Source of the DNA: an uncultured Gemmatimonadales bacterium
GTDB lineage: Bacteria > Gemmatimonadota > Gemmatimonadetes > Gemmatimonadales > GWC2-71-9
DNA: 64,000 nt
Direction of reading: 5' to 3'
Assembly (NCBI GenBank): GCA_963821525.1
Contig: CAWGED010000019.1
Location: 352,001-416,000, forward strand
Each line of letters opens with the position of its first letter. Positions within the stretch are counted from its first letter, which is position 1. The notes beneath the pieces were generated by a model. It searched no databases. It saw only the letters and a list, made by a program, of their open reading frames with translations, and was not told the DNA's origin. Positions 25,595 through 51,121 of this stretch are shown in pieces. Made by a program: the position numbers and the translations under genes.

Positions 25595-25668
25595 TCGGGA
25601 CGGCGGGATTCGAACCCGCGACCCCCTGAACCCCATTCAGGTGCGCTACCGGGCTGCGCTACGTCCCG
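25595..25668 (-). tRNA. tRNA-Pro(GGG)
   Basis: Reverse complement CGGGACGTAGCGCAGCCCGGTAGCGCACCTGAATGGGGTTCAGG...GGTTCGAATCC...; no encoded CCA. Confidence 0.95.
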
Positions 25669-30055: not shown

Positions 30056-30127
30056 AGCCACTGGTCGGAATTGAACCGACGACCGCTCGATTACGAATCG
30101 AGAGCTCTACCGCTGAGCTACAGTGGC
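30056..30127 (-). tRNA. tRNA-Thr(CGT)
   Basis: Reverse complement GCCACTGTAGCTCAGCGGTAGAGC, anticodon arm CTCGA-TTCGTAA-TCGAG. Confidence 0.95.
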
Positions 30128-30137
30128 GGAAGACGCA

Positions 30138-30219
30138 TGCCCTGGCGCGGATTCGAACCGCGACGCCTTTCGGCACTACCCCCTCAAGATAGCGTGTCTA
30201 CCAGTTTCACCACCAGGGC
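30138..30219 (-). tRNA. tRNA-Leu(GAG)
   Basis: Reverse complement GCCCTGGTGGTGAAACTGGTAGAC, anticodon arm CTATC-TTGAGGG-GGTAG, long variable arm. Confidence 0.95.
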
Positions 30220-34900: not shown

Positions 34901-37900
34901 ATTGGCCTGCGAGACATTATTTCCGTTGCCATCGCGCAGCCGCACCACGGGCTGGGTGGCGATGTCGATGCCGCTCTGCGCCGTGGCACTGGGCTGGGTC
35001 GTGATCGCAAGCTGGGTCGCCGACCCGGTCGTTCCGGTCGCAGTAAAGGTGAGCGGCGATCCGCTGAGTCCAGCCGACGTTGCTGTCAGGGTATTGGGCC
35101 CGGCAGTCGCTCCCAATGTCCAGCTTCCCACCGTGGCGATTCCGCTCGCGTTCGTGGTGGCATTCCCGCCGGTGATGCTCCCGCCACCTGTGGCGACCGC
35201 GAAGGTGACACTGCGACCCGCAACCGGATTGCCAGCCGCGTCAGTGACCAGTACTGCCGGATCAATCGGAACCGCCGTGCCCACCGGTGCGCTCTGCGCA
35301 TCACCCGCGCTCGTGGCGATCGTGGCGGCGGCACCGGCCGACAGGGCGATGTTCCCGGACGTCACCGATGTGAGCCCGGTCGAATGGAAGGTGAGGGTGT
35401 AGCCGCCGACCAATCCGCTGATCGAAAGTCCGCTGAAGGTGGCGACGCCGCTCGCGTTGGTCGTTGCGCTTGCAGTTCCACCCAGAGTTCCGCCGCTCGC
35501 CGTTACGGTTACCGAGACACCGGCCTGGCTCACCGCGTTGCCATTCGCGTCACGAAGCTGAATCACCGGCTGCGCCGCGAATACCGCTCCGCTCTGGGCG
35601 GTGCTCGACGGCTGAGTCGTAATGGAGAGTTGCGTCGCGCCGGAGGCGGTACCGGTGGCGTTGAAGCTCACCGGATTTCCCGGAGATGCCACTCCCGGTG
35701 GCGGTGGCGGTAACGGTGTTCGTGCCGGCGAGAGGTCCAAGGGTCCAGTCGCTCACCGTGGCAACGCCGGAGGCATTCGTAGTCTGCGTCGGCCCGCTCA
35801 GGCTTCCACCGCCCTGAGTAATGGCGAAGGTGACGGTCACACCGGCGACTGGATTCCCGGCTCCATCCTTGACCACAACCGACGGCGCCGAGGTGACCGG
35901 CGTTCCTACCGGCGCCGATTGACTCACCGGAGAGGCGGCGGCGATCTGGGCGGCGTTCCCGGCAACGACGTTGAAGGTCGAGCTGGTGTCCGACGTGAGG
36001 TTGCTTGCGGCGAAGAGCAGCGTGCGAGGGCCCACCAGCCCGCTGACCGCAAGGTTGGTGAAGGTCACCGAGCTACCGCCACCGGTACTGATACTGGTGG
36101 TGCCACCCAGGGTGCCCCCGCCGCTGCGCAACGTCGCCAGGATCGTCTTGGCAACGGACGCCGGATTACCCGCCGCGTCCTGGATCTGGACCACAGGCTG
36201 CTGCGGGAAGGCGATGCCGCTCTGCACCTGGGTCGAGGGCTGGGTAGTCACGACCAGCTGGGCGGGCGCGCCGGCGCTCAGCGAAATGTTGCTGGAAGTG
36301 ACGCCGGTGAGACTCGCCCCGCTGAAAGTCAGGGTGTAATTCCCGATCGTTCCGGTGATCGAGAGGTTGGTGAACGTGGCTACACCATTCACGGTAGCGA
36401 CCGTCGTGTTGCCGTTAAGCGTGCCGGCGCTCACGTCGGCGCTGATCGCGACACCATTGAGCTGCAGATTATTGCCGTTCTGATCCTGCAACTGGATCGC
36501 CGGCTGCTGCGCGATCCGGGCCCCGCTCTGGGCAGTGCTCGACGGCTGGGTCTTGATGGCAAGCTTGCCGGCGCTGCCCGCCGTGCCGGTGGCGTGGAAC
36601 GTCACAGGCGAACCGGACAAGCCTGCCGACGTAGCAGTCAGCGTATTGGGTCCGGCGATCGAACCCAGAGTCCAGCCGCCCACCTCGGCGATGCCGCTCG
36701 CATCGGTGACCGCGTTGGCACCACCGATTGAGCCGCCACCGGTCGCCACCGCGAAGGTGACCGCCACACCCGCCACTGGATTGCCGCCGCCATCGGTGAC
36801 CAGCACCGCGGGATCCACTGCGACCTGGGAACCGGCGGTCGCGGTCTGGTTGTCACCCGCCTGAATCGCCAGCGTGGCCGCAGCACCCCCGGTGAGCGCG
36901 ACATTGGCGCTGACCTTGGTAAGCCCCGTTGCTGAGAAGTCGAGAACCCGCGGACCCGCGGTTCCGCTGATCGCGAGATCGGTGAAGGTGGCGAGACCCT
37001 GAGCATTGGTCGTCTTGGTCGCAATGCCGGTCAGAGTGCCACCGCCAGTTGCAATGCCTGCGGTGACCGAAACGCCAGTTGAGCTGACGGGATTACCGGC
37101 AACGTCCGCCACCTGAATAGCGGGTTGCTGAGCGAACGGCACCCCGCTCTGCGCCGAGCTGGAGGGCTGCGTCGCGACAATGAGACGAGCCGCCGCTCCC
37201 GCGGATAGTGCGATGGACCCGGATACCGCCGAGGTGAGCCCCGACGCTGTGAAGGTCAGCGTGTAGGAGCCTACCGGGCCCGAGAGAGCGAGGCCGCTGA
37301 AGGTCGCCGTGCCATTCGCGTTGGTGCTTACCGTCAGAGTCCCCGCCAGGGTCGCGCCCCCACCCGTCACCGAGACCGTCACCTGCTTCCCGCCCTGGGC
37401 CACGGGATTCCCCAGCGCATCCTGCAGCTGAATGACCGGCTGAACCGCGAGCACTACTCCGTTCTGCGCCGAGGTCGAAGGCTGGGTGGACATTGCCAGC
37501 TTGCTCGCAGCACCGGCCTGACCAGTGGCATTGAAGAAGACGGGACTGCCGGTGAGCGGGTTGTTGCTTACATCCAGAGCGCTCGCGGCGACGCTGTTGT
37601 TGCCAGCGGTGGGCCCCAGCGTCCAATCGCTCAATGTGGCAAGGCCCGAGGAGTTGGTCGCGATCGTTGTTACGGTACCGCTGGCAGTGCCATCCGACAC
37701 GGTGCCGCCACCGGCGGTGACCGTGAAGGTGACCGTCTCGCCCTGGACCGGGTTGCCGTTCGCATCCGTGACCTTCACTGAGGGAGGTGCGCCCACCGGT
37801 GATCCGGCCGGGCCTGACTGGGTCACAGTGGAGACGGCAACGATCTTGGTTGGCTGAGCAGCCGTTGCGGTGGCCGTGAAGGTGACCGGCGTCAGGTTGG

Positions 37901-38928
37901 CGGAGGCGGCGTTGACGGTGTTGGTGCCGGCGGTCGGCCCGAGCGTCCACCGAGTAAAGGCCTTGCCATCGGTGTCGGTAATGCTGGTGGTCGGATTCAC
38001 CGTGCCGCCACCGGTCGCGATGGTCCAGAGAACCGTCTTGCCTGCAACACCGTTCCCGTTCGCGTCCTTGACGATGACGACGATGGAATCAGTCAGCTCG
38101 AGCCCGACCAGCCCGAACTGTCCGTCGGTGACGGGATCCTTGACCATCGTGGTCGCGGAGCCAGCGGAGGCGGTGTGGGTGAAGACGAGCGGCGATCCGT
38201 TGAGTCCCGCGGCATCGGCCTCGGCGCTTTGGGGACCGGCGGTGTTGCCCAGCACTCGCTGGACCGCGGCCTGTCCGTTGGCGCCGGTGTTCACGGTCGC
38301 CGCGCTGACCGTACCACCGCCAAGCGCACTCCAGCCAACGGAGAAACCGGAGACGGGATTGCCGAACTGGTCGGTGACTTTCGCAACGAGTGAATCGGCC
38401 AGCGCGGTGCCGACCTGGCCGGTCTGCTGATCGCCTTTTACTGCGGTGATGGTTGCAGCTGGACCTGCGAGCGCGGTGGCGTGAAAGGCTGCCTGATTGG
38501 GTTGCCGGCATTAGATCTTACCTCAGCCTCGACGTCCTGATTCCCATGCAGTATGGCCCAGTACCCACCTGGATCGTGCACGGCCATCGTCGTCTGTCTG
38601 AACGGTGTCGGGGATCAGGTCGGCGCCGGCATTAGCGCGCCACGAGCTCGAAACACCACCGGCGTAGTCGCGACGGGACCGCATCGTTTCGAGTTGGTGA
38701 CTACGGACGATCAGCGAATCGGCGAGGGGGGTCCCGACGACGCCCGTCTGATCGATCGCCCCCAATCACATCGATGTTCGCCGGCCCAAGATCGCCAGGC
38801 AGGGAAAGGCTGTCCTTCGTGCATTGGAGCGACGCCACTCCAAGCCCGAGCAGGCCAACCCATCCAAGCAGACGAGCCGATTTGTTCACAGGGGCAGAAT
38901 GGTGACCATGGTCACGAAGGGATGGCAT
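31910..38928 (-). CDS. giant Ig-like repeat surface lipoprotein/adhesin (~2,300 aa), frameshifts near 35675 and 38500-38770
   Basis: ORFs 31910..35740, 35550..38294, 38523..38765 and 38701..38928 continue one repeat series; N-terminal SLQC lipobox-like; C-terminal DNGNGTYSATY...GSPF. Confidence 0.8.
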
Positions 38929-43206: not shown

Positions 43207-44814
43207 TCAGGATCCTTTCCCCACGACCTCGACCACTGCGCGCCCATCCAAAGGCTCAAAGGGTTTAACCCGAAGCAGCGCCGCCAGAGTCGGGGCTATG
43301 TCTACTGTCTCGATCGAGCGGGTGAAGAGTCCCGACCGAACTCCCGGACCCATGAATACGATGGGCACGCTGAGGTCGTCGGGATTGGTCGTCCCATGCG
43401 TCGTCGAGGTTGCGTCGTCCGACCAAATGTAACCTGGACTCAATGAGGCGCAGAGCAGCCAGGGCAGATCATCGGGAAGGCTGCGCCGCCAGAGCGTTGC
43501 GTCTGACTCCGGGGAACCGGGAAGCGTCCGCGCGGTGTAAACCCGGGCGACTCCAGGAACCGCCTTCAAAGACTCGGCGAGCGCCACGGCCACGCTATCG
43601 ACATCCAGTCCGCGAGTCCGCAATTGATCCAGGTCCGCGGTGAGCAACCCGCTGTCGAAATAGAGCCCGGGCGATTTCACCCCAAGGGCCTTAAGGGTGG
43701 AATCGGTGCGTTGCTGAAAGGCGGTGGGCGAGACTCGGCCTGCGGGGCGACCGTTCAACCGCGCGTCTTCGGGATACGAGGTAACACCATGATCCCCGGT
43801 CATGATGACGAGGGGAGCCTGACCTTTGAGCAGCGTGGTCAAGGAATCGAGAAACCATCCGAGGGTTCGATCCAGCCGGAGGAGCTGATCGTGCAGCTCA
43901 CGCGAGTCGGGACCGAATTCGTGGCCTACGTAATCGGTAGTCGAGAGCGAAATCGCCAGCACATCGATGCCTCGGCGGCGTCCCAGCTGCAGGCTCCGAG
44001 TGCCTTCCAGCGCGACATCGAGCGTGAGCGAATCCATCCACGGAAAGCTGAGGGCCTGACGCATGGCCTTATCGGGATCGTCCGGGACCCGGTGAGGGAA
44101 GGTGACGTCGCGGCCGCCCTGCTCGAACGGTAGTGAATCCGGCTCGGCGTACGCCGAATCGGGGAGGAGAAGCGTCCAGCTCCGTCCCGCCAGCCCCGCA
44201 ACCGCCCTGCGATCGTTCCACCCCGTGAGCCACGAGGGCAACGTGTCGGCGTAATACTGGCTGGTGACAAATCGGCCGGAGGCATACCAGAACACCGGAC
44301 CTCGGCTGGACCCGATCGGAAGAATCGCGCCCCGGTCCTTGCCTGAGATGGAGAGAAAGCGAGAGTCGGAATCTTTCGCGCGCAGCCAATCCACCAGGGT
44401 GCTGCCCCGGAAGCGACGGGGGGACGCCCCGTTTCCGGTGTTCACTCCAACCAGCGGAAAGTCACGGTCGGGGACTCCGAAGTAGTTGCTCGGGATCCCC
44501 GTGTGGGCCGGGTTCCGCCCGGATAGCAGCGTCGCGTGCCCCGGAGCAGTCTCGGTAATGGCGTGGGCTTGCCTGGCGTTTGGGAAAACGGCACCGCGGC
44601 TCAGCATCCGGGCGAAAGCACCGCGCCACTGGCCGCGATAGCGCTCCAAGTAGTCCCCTCGGAGCTGATCCACGGTCACAAGGATGACCAGGTGCGGAGG
44701 TGCCGCGTGCAACTGCGGTGGCACCGCCAGCAGACCTGACACGAGACCTACGATCGAGAGGCGCCGAAGAGGCTTGCCGGTGGCAAACGGGAGGGGATTC
44801 TGCGATGTGATCAC
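43207..44814 (-). CDS. alkaline phosphatase family protein (PafA-like)
   Basis: TVDQLR, TETAPGHAT, KDRGAI, DYVGH.FGPDS, TGDHG, THG, DIAPTLA. Confidence 0.92.
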   Translation of the reverse strand: MITSQNPLPFATGKPLRRLSIVGLVSGLLAVPPQLHAAPPHLVILVTVDQLRGDYLERYRGQWRGAFARMLSRGAVFPNARQAHAITETAPGHATLLSGRNPAHTGIPSNYFGVPDRDFPLVGVNTGNGASPRRFRGSTLVDWLRAKDSDSRFLSISGKDRGAILPIGSSRGPVFWYASGRFVTSQYYADTLPSWLTGWNDRRAVAGLAGRSWTLLLPDSAYAEPDSLPFEQGGRDVTFPHRVPDDPDKAMRQALSFPWMDSLTLDVALEGTRSLQLGRRRGIDVLAISLSTTDYVGHEFGPDSRELHDQLLRLDRTLGWFLDSLTTLLKGQAPLVIMTGDHGVTSYPEDARLNGRPAGRVSPTAFQQRTDSTLKALGVKSPGLYFDSGLLTADLDQLRTRGLDVDSVAVALAESLKAVPGVARVYTARTLPGSPESDATLWRRSLPDDLPWLLCASLSPGYIWSDDATSTTHGTTNPDDLSVPIVFMGPGVRSGLFTRSIETVDIAPTLAALLRVKPFEPLDGRAVVEVVGKGS

Positions 44815-44936
44815 TGCAGTATATCCGTACAGTACGATATCATAAATTATTTGTCACCAAGAAGTTACATACATTGGCACCGTTTTGGCTCTAAACAGAT
44901 CCGAAGTCAAAAAGGTGTCGTTCGCGTAAACACGAA

Positions 44937-45029
44937 CCGCCCGATAAGAGCACACCCGGAGCGATCCGGGGCCGCAAAACTAGAGGTCTCCCGTGAAAGC
45001 CGCGAGAGATAGCTCGGTGCCGAAGGTGG
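44937..45029 (+). promoter_or_regulatory. GEMM-I cyclic dinucleotide riboswitch (c-di-GMP-I fold, A20 / cGAMP-type variant)
   Basis: P1 CCGCC/GGTGG; AAGAGCACAC; P2 CCCGGA-GCGA-TCCGGG; GCCGCAAA; P3 ACTAGAG.GTCTC...GAGAT.AG.CTCGGT; GCCGAA. Confidence 0.85.
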
Positions 45030-45113
45030 ATCAGTGCGGAGCGTGATGCGAATTCGAGCCGAAATCCGGCTCCCACGTGTCGCGCTTTTGTGTTCTCGGG
45101 CATGGGAGAACCC

Positions 45114-45581
45114 ATGCCGCAGTCGTCCAGGACCGCCCGCAAGGCGGAGCCCCAAGCTGGTCGCATCCAAGGAGCCCCATTGTTCTGCCTTGGCCTGCTG
45201 GTCTCGATCGCCGCGTGTGAAGCTATGGCGCCGTCTGCGCCGCTCCCGGAGAACGCCCAGTTGATGTCGGCGCCTCCGCAGTTCATGGAGTGGTGGCAGA
45301 AGACCGAGGAGTGCTCCGGTCTCCGGGGCGACGCTTCACAAATCGAGTGGTATGTGGTTCCCAACGTCTCGGTCTTCTCGACGGGCGACGGCGAAAAGGT
45401 CGGCTTGTGGACCCGCTCCAGTGAGGGAACCCGGATTATCCTGGCCGGAAACTATATGCAGAACGAGCTGGTTGTGCGGCACGAGATGCTGCACGCCCTG
45501 CTGGACCACGAAGGACATCCCCGCGAGTATTTCATCGAGCGCTGCGGCCTCACCTGGGATTCCTGGCACGGCGGCAACTAA
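45114..45581 (+). CDS. hypothetical lipoprotein with HEXXH motif
   Basis: SD GGGAG; SIAAC lipobox; WW...EECSG; VRHEMLHALL...HP..YF..C. Confidence 0.75.
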   Translation: MPQSSRTARKAEPQAGRIQGAPLFCLGLLVSIAACEAMAPSAPLPENAQLMSAPPQFMEWWQKTEECSGLRGDASQIEWYVVPNVSVFSTGDGEKVGLWTRSSEGTRIILAGNYMQNELVVRHEMLHALLDHEGHPREYFIERCGLTWDSWHGGN

Positions 45582-45679: not shown

Positions 45680-48387
45680 CTACGGCTGACTGATCGGTGT
45701 TGGAGTCTCTCTCTGGAAGACAGTCCCGTCGCCAAGCTGGCCGAGTGAGTTATCACCCCAGCAGTACGCCTGCCCGCCGATGGTCACTCCGCAGACATGG
45801 TCTGTGCCGGCGGCGATCGAGGCGAAGCTGATCCCGCCGGCGACCAGGGTCGGAGCCGTCGCATTGTCGGTGCTGCCGTTTCCGAGCTGGCCGGAAGCGT
45901 TGTAGCCCCAGCAGTATGCCGTGCCACCGGCGGTGAGGCCACACGTGAAGCTGTTGCCCGATTCCAGTGAGCTGAAGGTGAGGCCGCCGGAGACTGCCAG
46001 CGGCGTCAGGCTTTCAGTGGTCGTGACTGTATCCTGCCCCAACCGTCCGTTGAGGTTGGATCCCCAGCAATAGGCGGCTCCGCCGGTGACCAGTCCGCAG
46101 GTGTGAACCTGGCCGGGGGCCACCAGAGTGAAGAGCAATCCACCGACGACTTTCGAGGGCTGATTGGTATTCGCTTTCGGGGCGTCGTTCCCCAGCTGGC
46201 CGAAGCCGTCAGCACCCCAGCAGAACGCTGCGCCGCTGGTCCGCACGCCGCAACTGTAGAAGGCCGCGGCAGCGATCTGGGTCCAGGTCCCCGAAACCAG
46301 GACCGCACTCGGTGTAGTGACGGGAGCGAGTGGTGCGCCGTTACCTAACTGTCCTGAGCCGTCGGCACCCCAGCAGAAGCCCGTGCCGGTGCTGTTGATG
46401 GCGCAGGTCTGGCGGCCGCCGCTTCCAGTACCGGTCGAGATGGCCTGGAACACCATTCCACCCGAGACGGGATGGGGCACCGAGTCAAGCGCGGTGGTGC
46501 CGTTGCCCAGGGCACCATTTGTGTTGCCACCCCAGCAATACGCGACGCCGGCATTGGTCAAGGCGCAGCTATAGAGCCGTCCGGCCGCGATCCGCGAGAA
46601 GGTCTGCCCGCCAGCGACGGCGGTCGGAGTCGGGCGGTTGGTGAGGCTGTTGTCGCCCAGGGCGCCTTGACTGTTATCACCCCAGCAGAAGCCCACCCCA
46701 TCCACCGTCACGGCGCAGGAGTGCCCGCTGCCGCCTGCGATCCTCGCGACCTGGAAGGTTCCTGTCGCATCGAAGTTCACCGTCGCGGCAACCAGCGCGG
46801 CGCTTACGCTCACGGTGTTGCCGCCGACCGAGGTGCCCAGAGTCCATCCGGCCAGAGTCGCGATGCCGGTCGCATCGGTGGTGACCGGATTGGCCGGACT
46901 CACGGTCCCCGCACCCGCCGTGACATTGAAAGTCACCGCAGCACCCGAAACCGGATTGCCGCTCACGTCAGTAACCTGCACCGAGGGCGGAGTGGCCACG
47001 TTGGCGCCAACTCCGGCGTTCTGATTGAGCGGCGAGAGCGCCAGGATGTTGGCCGCAGGTCCCGCAGTCAAAGTGATCGCCGACGACGTGACGGAGGTGA
47101 GGCCGGTCGAGGCAAAGTCCAGTGCGTAAGCGCCGACGGTGCCAGTCAGGGATAAGTCGGTGAAAGTCGCGACGCCGGTGGCGTCGGTGTTGATGCTCAC
47201 GGTGCCGCCGAGTCCCGCGCTTGTGGGCGAGCGGGAGACGGTCACCGGAGCCCGGCCTGGATCACGTCGTTGCCGAACTCGTCCTGCAGCCGAATCACCG
47301 GCTGTTGCGCCAGAACCGAACCATTCTGGACCGTGGTCGAGGGCGCGGTGCTGATCGCCAGCTTGGCAGGCGGCCCCGCCTGCGCGGCGGCATCGAAAGC
47401 CACCGGTGCCAGTGATCCGACTGATGCGTCGAGGGTGTTAGACCCAGCGACGGTGCCCAAGGTCCAGCTCGTGACCTGTGCAATGCCGCCCAAGCCGGTC
47501 GGACTGCTCCCGCCAGTGACGCTTCCACCGCCCGCGGTCACAGTGAAGGTGACGGTGACCCCAACCACGGGATTTCCGCTCGCATCGGTCACTTGTACGG
47601 TCGGACGGTTGGAGACCGGCTGTCCGACGGTGCCGCCCAGAATTGTCGAGGTGGTCGCCACGATGGTTGCTGGCGTTCCTACCAGTACATCGATTGCCCC
47701 GGAGCCGACCGAAGTAAGTCCTGGGCTGGTAAACGTCAGGGTGCGAGGCCCGACCGTTCCGATGATCTCGAGGTTGGTGAAGACGGCGGCACCCGTCGCA
47801 TCGGTGTTCTCGGTCAGGGTCCCGTTGAGCGTGCCACCCCCGGAGGTGATGGAAACGGTGACGGGGACGCCGGCTTGAGCCCGATCATTCCCATAGGCGT
47901 CATGCAACTGCACGACCGGCTGCTGGGCAAACACACCGCCACTCGGGACGGCGGGGGAGGGTGGCGTGGTCAGGACGAGCGCGGTCGCGGTACCCGCCGT
48001 TCCGGTCGCGTTGATGGTGACCGGAGTGAGTCCGGTGACCGAGCCCTGCAAAGTGTTGGAGCCAGCGGCCGTGCCAAGCGTCCAGGAGCCGACTGCGGCA
48101 ACACCGTTGGCGTCGGTTGTAGCGGTGCCGCCGGTGATCGTGCCACCGCCGGTTTGAACCGTGAAAGTGACGTCTACCCCCGACATCGGGTCGCCGTTCT
48201 GATCCCGCACCAGCACGGCCGGTGCAATCGGAACCGCGGTAGCAACCGCTGCCGTCTGGTTGCTGCCGACGCTGATGCCGATGCTGGTTGGGACCTTGGG
48301 AGCCGGCCCGGTGCTATCGCTGCCGCTGCAGGCGACCAGGTAGGCCAGCGCACTGACGAGTACAACCCGGCGAGGGAGGCGCATCAC
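45680..48387 (-). CDS. lipoprotein with Ig-like repeats and C-terminal RCC1-like beta-propeller, frameshift near 47250
   Basis: LVAC lipobox; Ig repeats; seven H/Y.C.....G.A.CWG.N..GQLG units. Confidence 0.85.
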
Positions 48388-50475: not shown

Positions 50476-50548
50476 TGCGCCGCGTAGGAATCGAACCTAC
50501 AACCTAGTGATTAAGAGTCACTTGCTCTGCCAATTGAGCTAGCGGCGC
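50476..50548 (-). tRNA. tRNA-Lys(CTT)
   Basis: Anticodon arm AGTGA-CTCTTAA-TCACT on the reverse complement. Confidence 0.95.
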
Positions 50549-50552
50549 TCTA

Positions 50553-50624
50553 TAGCCCCAACGGGAATCGAACCCGTCTTTCGACCTTGAAAGGGTCGCG
50601 TCCTGACCGATAGACGATGGGGCC
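50553..50624 (-). tRNA. tRNA-Glu(TTC)
   Basis: Anticodon arm CGACC-CTTTCAA-GGTCG. Confidence 0.95.
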
Positions 50625-50655
50625 ATGGCCAGAGACGAGTACCGAGTTGAAAGGA

Positions 50656-50728
50656 TAGCGCTAACGGGATTCGAACCCGTGTTTGGGCCTTGAGAGGGCC
50701 CCGTCCTAGTCCCCTAGACGATAGCGCC
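50656..50728 (-). tRNA. tRNA-Glu(CTC)
   Basis: Anticodon arm GGGCC-CTCTCAA-GGCCC. Confidence 0.95.
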
Positions 50729-50737
50729 AATACCTAC

Positions 50738-50845
50738 AGTACCGGGTACCTAGTACCGAGTACCGAGTACAACGCTTTCCCTAGCCACCTTCTCACCTTT
50801 TATCAGCATCTCGTACTCGGTACCCGGTACTAGGTACTCGGTACT
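50738..50845. repeat. 33-bp inverted arms made of AGTACCG heptamers
   Basis: 50738-50770 vs 50813-50845, two differences. Confidence 0.9.
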
Positions 50846-50856
50846 AGATGAAAAAG

Positions 50857-50929
50857 CAGGCCCGGCAGGAATCGAACCTGCAACCCCCGGTTTTGGAGAC
50901 CGGTGCTCTACCAATTGAGCTACGGACCT
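50857..50929 (-). tRNA. tRNA-Trp(CCA)
   Basis: Anticodon arm CCGGT-CTCCAAA-ACCGG. Confidence 0.95.
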
Positions 50930-50930
50930 A

Positions 50931-51044
50931 AGCGGTCAGGCGGGATGGCGGTCAGGCGGAAAGAGAAGCCTGGGTTCGATCCAACACGATCGCATTCGAT
51001 CCGCTTTTTCCTACCGCCCTCCCGCCTTTCCGCCTTCCCACCCT
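50931..51044. repeat. inverted arms of GGCGGNNN octamers
   Basis: agcggtcaggcgggatggcggtcaggcggaaag ... ctaccgccctcccgcctttccgccttcccaccct. Confidence 0.75.
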
Positions 51045-51046
51045 AG

Positions 51047-51121
51047 GGTGGCTGACGGGACTTGAACCCGCAACCTCCGGAGCCACAGTCCGGCGCTCTA
51101 ACCACTTGAGCTACAACCACC
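51047..51121 (-). tRNA. tRNA-His(GTG)
   Basis: Anticodon arm CCGGA-CTGTGGC-TCCGG; encoded G-1 and C73. Confidence 0.95.

Follow-up and report, generated by a model that had tools for sequence, protein, structure and literature searches.

An A20-Type GEMM-I Riboswitch, a Likely 3',3'-cGAMP Sensor, in an Uncultured Family of Gemmatimonadales

Hypr-type 3',3'-cGAMP signaling has been shown in few organisms, for example Geobacter, Myxococcus, and Bdellovibrio. Wright et al. (bioRxiv 10.1101/600031) noted that candidate phosphodiesterases for cGAMP have a wider distribution than its known synthases and riboswitches. Hypr enzymes are defined by a Ser/Thr at the position of GacA residue 348 together with a GGDEF motif (PMC6456294; PMC9140294). 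A Tyr at the cross-dimer position favors cGAMP and an Arg favors c-di-GMP, and Hypr enzymes that have the Arg yield more c-di-GMP (PMC6456294). On the degrading side, an RxxQ motif is the mark of the cGAMP phosphodiesterase PmxA; Rxx(Q/N) makes up 4.69% of HD-GYPs, and among six such enzymes that were tested three were cGAMP-selective, two cut both dinucleotides, and one was inactive (bioRxiv 10.1101/600031).

We analyzed a riboswitch in a stretch of 64,000 nucleotides (the window) from an uncultured bacterium of the Gemmatimonadales family GWC2-71-9. Its class is already known, and it is set apart as a variant by its lineage, by a predicted layout with a sigma-54 promoter and a translational OFF switch, and by an Asn-type Fe-S enzyme. 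We put at roughly 0.6 the probability that this A20 riboswitch senses 3',3'-cGAMP, with a predicted OFF effect on translation of a lipoprotein gene, and that it is among the outputs of the family's likely cGAMP pathway. Our literature search, judged by titles and abstract openings, found no paper on cGAMP or on these switches in Gemmatimonadota; the species lists of the PNAS 2015/2016 papers may include the lineage, and the string "Gemmat" is absent from the eLife supplements. The features are collected in Table 1.

Table 1. Coordinates of the switch locus in the window and of associated loci in the genome and the family
Feature	Position	Strand	Evidence or remark
Sigma-54-type -24/-12 motif, TGGCAC-N7-GC	44875..44889	+	Kept in relatives; rpoN in genome
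c-di-GMP-I-fold (GEMM-I) aptamer, A20 subtype	44937..45029	+	RF01051, 46.4 bits; covariation in relatives
A at position 20, reads A/G-alpha half of ligand	44949	+	Alignment column; four DNA runs; role from PMC6140456
C92, in Watson-Crick pair with ligand G-beta	45020	+	Sequence; roles from PMC6140456, PMC7288161
Long hairpin and U-rich spacer	45036..45095	+	Folds; hairpin formed in both modeled states
Anti-aptamer strand, core TCGGGC 45096-45101	45089..45101	+	Complementary to aptamer 5' strand including A20; predicted ligand-free fold
8-bp hairpin GGCATGGG/CCCATGCC	45099..45118	+	Covers Shine-Dalgarno 45104-45109 and start codon 45114; sequence, folds
Regulated gene, 155-aa predicted lipoprotein, lipobox Cys35	45114..45581	+	VRHEMLH..HP motif
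Second A20 switch	C19:931744-931831 (L001:1501-1588)	-	Behind sigma-54 motif
Fe-S GGDEF	C19:821388-823067		Domains 4Fe-4S, Fe-hydrogenase-like, FeS, GGDEF
Ser-type membrane GGDEF	C16, locus L010		GHDVGS and GGDEF; cross-dimer Arg (NRR)
Receiver-HD-GYP with RxxQ	C4:370392-370889		RPYQ where PmGH has RPYK; HD and GYP motifs intact
Full-signature Hypr membrane group	L047-L061, L065-L067		MASE1 in the one member scanned
A20-G20 tandems	G100 (C1, C176, C246), G109 (C83, C102), G058:C50, G084:C80; e.g., L076, L098		

The aptamer, its specificity position, and its distribution

An earlier note, made from the DNA letters without database searches, had described a GEMM-I fold with helices P1, P2, and P3, a GCGA loop, a CGCAAA junction, and a 3' GCCGAA, and every one of these elements lies where the note had placed it. 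In P1, CCGCC-CG (44937-44943) pairs with CG (45021-22) and GGTGG (45025-29), with an AA bulge between the two. P2 consists of the pairs G44950-C44975 and C44951-G44974 and a stem (44955-60/44965-70) with the GCGA loop on top; the junction occupies 44973-78, P3 contains GTCTC (44986-90) and GAGAT (45006-10), and the 3' GCCGAA spans 45019-24. Further positions are numbered after Vc2 as G14, C44, G83, and C93. The covariance-model search that the note had proposed gives a match to Rfam RF01051 at 44939-45024 with 46.4 bits, above the gathering score of 35 (E 6.4e-6); the clan-mate RF03167, the c-di-GMP-I-GGC variant, scores 47.3 bits, which is under its own cut-off of 59 and leaves the aptamer outside that family. 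The riboswitch is a certain member of c-di-GMP-I (RF01051), and it has the expression platform that belongs to the class, lying between the sigma-54-type motif and the start codon at 45114 with a conserved anti-aptamer strand; the direction of its control is a prediction. Plain MFE folding by itself yields a weak signal (z -1.69). In an alignment of 31 family aptamers, the structure is kept in 96.6% of 682 cells, the pocket pairs are invariant in 31 of 31, the tertiary C-G pair is present, and 14 of 22 pairs are altered on both sides, a value reached by 0 of 500 shuffles, a figure that is not a probability because the aligned sequences are kin.

In the same alignment, A44949 shares its column with the G of the G20 relatives, in agreement with the note's assignment of this base to position 20. 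A base-call error is excluded, since four DNA runs from four studies hold no alternative letter at 44949 and the second switch of the genome also has an A there; contigs from two of the four runs (X1, X3) span the base. With A44949 and C45020 the aptamer has the A20 and C92 of the GEMM-Ib class, and it may prefer 3',3'-cGAMP over c-di-GMP. The note's caution that A20 suggests selectivity without proving it is well founded: bispecific binding is widespread among A20 aptamers by way of A20 protonation, the Vc2 mutant G20A has affinities of 53 nM for c-di-GMP and 120 nM for cGAMP, and the selectivity of Gs1761 is just ∼3-fold by ITC in one buffer (PMC6140456). We rejected c-di-AMP as the ligand. 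A DAC cyclase is present in the genome, yet position 92 is a C and not the U of the c-di-AMP-binding mutant, G20A/C92U (PMC7288161).

The window's genome, which is 81% complete, has two RF01051 copies with nearly identical aptamers. Both are A20, so the note's proposed search for further A20 copies ended with one more; neither RF01051 nor the G20 pattern finds a G20 switch in the 81% that is covered. The second copy heads genes for STAS, receiver, and CcmA proteins, and the next ORFs resemble ccmB and ccmC by eye. Across the family, RF01051 was found in 104 of 121 genomes. The exact A20 pattern has 121 matches in 76 of the 121 and the exact G20 pattern 71 matches in 47, with two matches for each reversed-pattern control; the patterns overlook aptamers with other P2 lengths. 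A20 and G20 switches co-occur in 36 family genomes, and seven A20-then-G20 tandems, 158-196 nt apart, lie across four genomes, an arrangement that fits two distinct ligands. The A20-G20 pairing does not appear in the table passage of a tandem-riboswitch survey (PMC9481103). The tandems that were read precede secreted Ig-like-looking proteins and are candidate two-input cGAMP/c-di-GMP gates. Another genome (G047) has A20-A20 and A20-A20-A20 runs.

The A20 switches of the family fall into two subtypes. For the window's subtype, with 69 loci, the next gene encodes a STAS protein in 39, the HEXXH lipoprotein in 16, and another protein in 11, while three loci have no callable gene. Switches of the other subtype are followed by long secreted proteins whose repeats look Ig-like by eye, and it is this subtype that forms the A20-G20 tandems. 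We note that the STAS target of the second copy in the window's genome is the commonest target of the window's subtype, which ties the subtype to cytochrome c maturation. A GTDB-wide scan for this subtype gave at least 120 matches; among the 80 listed, 68 are in Gemmatimonadota (including Gemmatimonadaceae and Longimicrobiaceae), nine in Chloroflexota, and three elsewhere, and similar A20 aptamers are present in Gemmatimonadaceae and Chloroflexota records among the matches listed. In the Chloroflexota records (L326, L328, L329, L345, L351, L356, L365, L371, L372) the aptamer is a related A20 form whose P1 seems to contain the ribosome site, and most stand before a protein with a W-(D/N)-G-x-R-W-like start.

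Promoter, expression platform, and regulated gene

A sigma-54-type motif lies upstream of 49 of 67 same-subtype switches and in 35 of 842 control windows; by target, it precedes 37 of 38 STAS loci and 9 of 15 HEXXH loci. The window's genome contains rpoN, and no sigma-70 promoter was found for the switch. Transcription by the sigma-54 polymerase is predicted from the motif to begin near 44901. The RNA-library contigs of relatives span the leader and the gene; strand, ends, and level are not readable from them.

We predict from modeling that the platform is a kinetically controlled translational OFF switch. With ligand absent, 45089-45101 would pair with the aptamer 5' strand and the ribosome site would be more open; with ligand bound, P1 would be locked and the freed strand would pair over the Shine-Dalgarno site and the start codon. 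The sequence allows both arrangements, as the anti-aptamer bases can alternatively form the 8-bp hairpin over the Shine-Dalgarno and ATG. Across 49 leaders the anti-aptamer strand has a mean of 8.2 Watson-Crick pairs, compared with 4.1 in 392 control windows, and it mostly sits 10-17 nt upstream of the start codon. For transcripts ending at the start codon, pairing of the 5' strand with the anti-aptamer strand dominates (P > 0.5) without ligand in 44 of the 49 leaders, and with the aptamer enforced the ribosome site becomes costlier to open in 36 and cheaper to open in two. The folding support for an OFF switch depends on the window width and the coding length used: with the narrow window and 36 coding bases, the anti-aptamer pairing is found in 33 of 49 and the opening cost goes up in 28 and down in eight, and equilibrium folding in which the ribosome window is widened to -15..+6, with 36 coding bases, gives no ON/OFF signal (17 up and 25 down of 50). 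In the window's own leader, enforcing the aptamer shifts the cost by just 1.2-2.2 kcal/mol. The ribosome-site hairpin is only mildly stronger than controls, with 33 of 49 above the control mean, and in four short leaders the ribosome site lies inside P1.

Whatever the ligand, the switch might instead end transcription early, with the hairpin and its U-rich tract in 45036-45095 as the terminator, a proposal that concerns the mechanism only and overlaps with every hypothesis on the ligand. The long hairpin is indeed followed by TTTTGTGTT, and similar hairpins occur in many relatives. The same hairpin, however, is present in both modeled states and is not called by the terminator scan, and several relatives lack it and keep the anti-aptamer strand or have the ribosome site in P1. 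We therefore hold termination to be unlikely as the mode of control; in the models, the hairpin is probably a spacer and possibly a weak terminator.

The regulated gene encodes a protein with 139 homologues, and those named are from Gemmatimonadales. Together with the homologues of the Fe-S GGDEF described below, which are named as Gemmatimonadales/Gemmatimonadota, they bear out the note's guess at the lineage. In 48 aligned sequences the RHEMLH..HP motif (HEXXH), H135, C67, and C144 are invariant. No Pfam or NCBIfam family matched the protein, and its structure model (pLDDT 87) has no Foldseek match at E ≤ 0.001; the best structural matches of the model are minimal zincins with weak Z scores of 5.5-6.4 (for the best match, rmsd 3.9 over 85 residues). 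The lipoprotein is a putative small surface metallopeptidase, likely of the minimal zinc type. Among the neighbors in the window, a gene of the alkaline phosphatase/nucleotide pyrophosphatase family (43207-44814, minus strand) is divergent from the switch, and ORFs for Ig-like (Big_1) and RCC1-repeat surface proteins lie at 45680-48387 and 35550-38294 (both minus strand); within the former, 47242-48387 and 45680-47245 adjoin in two frames and could be a single gene with a frameshift. Eight tRNA genes lie on the minus strand of the window (25595-25668, 30056-30219, 50476-51120).

Candidate enzymes of cGAMP turnover

The window's genome has 13 GGDEF matches, several of the canonical Asp type. 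The earlier note had proposed a search for Hypr-type proteins, which came out in part: GGDEFs with a non-Asp residue are present, but no textbook Hypr enzyme, with Ser348 and a non-Arg cross-dimer residue, is found among the GGDEFs of the 81%-complete genome. The foremost candidate is the Fe-S GGDEF. When aligned to GacA (6D9M, the second-best of 45 PDB matches), it has Tyr411 at the cross-dimer site and Asn455 at the Ser348 site, so it has the GGDE[F/Y] motif and a non-Arg cross-dimer residue of Hypr enzymes and lacks their Ser/Thr. The enzyme occurs in 107 of 121 family genomes, nearly always as a single copy. In 107 sequences from 105 genomes (G049 and G061 were excluded, as their matches have no GGDEF part), the residue at the Ser348 site is Asn in 97, Ser in 10, and Asp in none; the cross-dimer residue is Tyr in 49, Phe in 46, another in 12, and Arg in none; and the GGDEF motif is intact in 107 of 107. 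The best 120 database homologues all have Asn at the Ser348 site. No experimental test of an Asn in this position turned up in our literature search. Its side chain could, we infer, accept either base. Among the mCpol enzymes, which are distant relatives, exchanging Ser and Asn moves the products between c-di-AMP and cGAMP (PMC12657218), at a site that may correspond to GacA 348. The gene lies in C19:818795-824591 downstream of a sigma-54 activator-like gene, apparently split across frames, and is itself followed by genes for an uncharacterized protein and an RxxR HD-GYP.

The genome also encodes a Ser-type membrane GGDEF on contig C16, which combines Ser348 and GGDEF with a cross-dimer Arg. 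It also occurs in one of two congeners and forms a separate long branch in the tree. A copy on contig C15 is broken across frames and 92.8% identical; it may be a strain duplicate. The full Hypr signature appears in a separate membrane GGDEF group, with Ser in 18 translated loci of relatives and a cross-dimer Tyr in 16 and His in two; the Ser pattern does not find this group in the window's genome. The GGDEF tree was built without GacA, and the node that unites its Fe-S clade with the MASE1 clade falls short of the support threshold (92/86). Two other candidates were dropped: a GGDDF fragment (C5:1111041) that looked GacA-like at first has Asp at the specificity site, and locus L046, which the Ser pattern had picked up, does not encode a GGDEF.

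Among 11 HD_5 matches in the genome, the receiver-HD-GYP has the PmxA-type combination of Rxx(Q/N) with intact HD-GYP motifs, and its sequence suggests that it may hydrolyze cGAMP; the match of RPYQ to PmGH R314/K317 assumes a six-residue tag offset. The RxxQ pattern is present in 84 of 121 family genomes, with no control matches, and 27 of 30 translated loci align over nearly their full length and three in part. A copy of the gene on contig C9 is not counted apart, C9 being ∼93% identical to C4 over long stretches; the ∼93% identical contig pairs C9/C4 and C15/C16 are probably a second strain in the assembly. A further HD-GYP-like fragment (C3:64302-64508, L266) has RSYQ.

In the phylum sample, the window's family stands out for A20 (50 of 71 versus 7 of 79 others), the Fe-S GGDEF (65 of 71 versus 4 of 79), the non-Asp GGDEF pattern (56 of 71 versus 8 of 79), and RxxQ (57 of 71 versus 1 of 79), a contrast that counts as one event because a single clade is concerned and also supplied the patterns. 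The Fe-S GGDEF is found in none of 31 genomes of a sister family. The A20 switch is accompanied by both the Fe-S GGDEF and RxxQ in 47 of the 76 A20 genomes of the family, and within the family its presence shows no association with either enzyme (Fe-S GGDEF, p 0.57; RxxQ, p 1.0). The second A20 subtype does go with the MASE1-type Hypr group (p 8e-6, among kin that are non-independent and with three genomes assigned by pattern only).

The likely signal and comparison with known systems

We regard cGAMP as the likeliest signal because three separate marks, in the switch, the Fe-S GGDEF, and the HD-GYP, come together in one genome and family. The earlier note's suggestion that the organism may use cGAMP signaling gains from the RxxQ HD-GYP and the non-Asp GGDEFs; it stays unproven because no GGDEF of the genome carries both GacA marks and A20 aptamers often bind both ligands. 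The latter property underlies the next reading in order, that the switch responds to c-di-GMP as well as to cGAMP, which we judge unlikely. In its favor, A20 aptamers are described as widely bispecific through A20 protonation (PMC6140456), and the aptamer keeps a Vc2-like G21-C46 pair where Gs1761 has a C. The genome, in which no G20 switch was found, also encodes canonical Asp GGDEFs, and c-di-GMP may be what its A20 copies respond to. Yet 36 genomes retain A20 as well as G20 switches, and the two also form ordered tandems; an A20 aptamer equally responsive to both ligands would make this pairing redundant.

More improbable still is a lineage that makes no cGAMP, in which A20 would be a tolerated c-di-GMP variant of lower affinity, the Asn GGDEF would either act as a diguanylate cyclase or be a sensor without activity, and RxxQ would be incidental. 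In favor of this, D344 is reportedly needed for canonical activity (PMC7288161), and D-to-S changes in canonical enzymes gave proteins that were inactive or c-di-GMP-only (PMC6456294). A CBASS/DncV source was considered and dropped, with no match to SMODS, the one family searched, in the 81%-complete genome, and there are lineages with A20 aptamers in which no Fe-S GGDEF turned up. Against this reading, three separate rare marks meet in one family, Ser is present in ten orthologues of the Asn enzyme, and full-signature Hypr enzymes are found in relatives.

With cGAMP as the preferred signal, the near-core Fe-S GGDEF (Tyr411/Asn455/GGDEF) would make the dinucleotide, plausibly under redox control, the Ser-type membrane GGDEF perhaps contributing a part, and the receiver-HD-GYP would degrade it. 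A bolder proposal is that this uncultured soil family of Gemmatimonadales has a complete, family-wide 3',3'-cGAMP pathway, with the redox-sensing Fe-S GGDEF with Asn in place of the Hypr Ser as writer, the RxxQ receiver-HD-GYP as eraser, and sigma-54-driven OFF switches and tandem cGAMP/c-di-GMP switches as readers. We offer it tentatively, as a possibility that we would not bet on at even odds. If it holds, the Hypr definition would widen to Asn-type GGDEFs that the Ser/Thr rule overlooks. The family provides a direct test, with a single-copy, near-core GGDEF that has Asn or Ser and never Asp or Arg at the two sites, an RxxQ enzyme, and A20 switches. Should cGAMP be made, this signaling would extend to a soil phylum and gain another active-site solution and a possible redox input; should c-di-GMP be favored, the riboswitch would be an ordinary one and would warn against relying on A20 by itself.

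The aptamer resembles Vibrio cholerae Vc2 as a member of the same covariance model, with the G21-C22 base of P2 and the CGCAAA junction. It differs from Vc2 and its bispecific G20A mutant in that A20 is natural here and the internal loop of P2 is AC-A rather than AAA. With the GEMM-Ib switches of Geobacter (Gs1761, Gm0970) it shares the fold, the A at position 20, and the C at position 92, but it belongs to another phylum and has G rather than C at position 21. Preceded by a sigma-54 motif, the switch is predicted to turn translation OFF, in contrast to the pgcA switch of Geobacter, which acts as an ON switch by means of a terminator (PMC6456294). The genes controlled here would be those for a zincin-like lipoprotein and a STAS-receiver-ccm run rather than omc/pil genes. 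The Fe-S GGDEF is like the Hypr enzymes GacA (Geobacter, 6D9M) and Bd0367 in its GGDEF motif and cross-dimer Tyr, and in the Ser of 10 of 107 orthologues; unlike them, it has Asn for Ser348, as do 97 of 107, and a 4Fe-4S/Fe-hydrogenase-like input module, and the Ser enzyme of the genome differs from them in its cross-dimer Arg and its separate long branch. The candidate eraser matches PmxA of Myxococcus xanthus in the RxxQ at the PmGH R314/K317 site and in its intact HD and GYP motifs, and it differs in architecture, being a receiver-HD-GYP where PmxA is a Cache-HAMP-HD-GYP.
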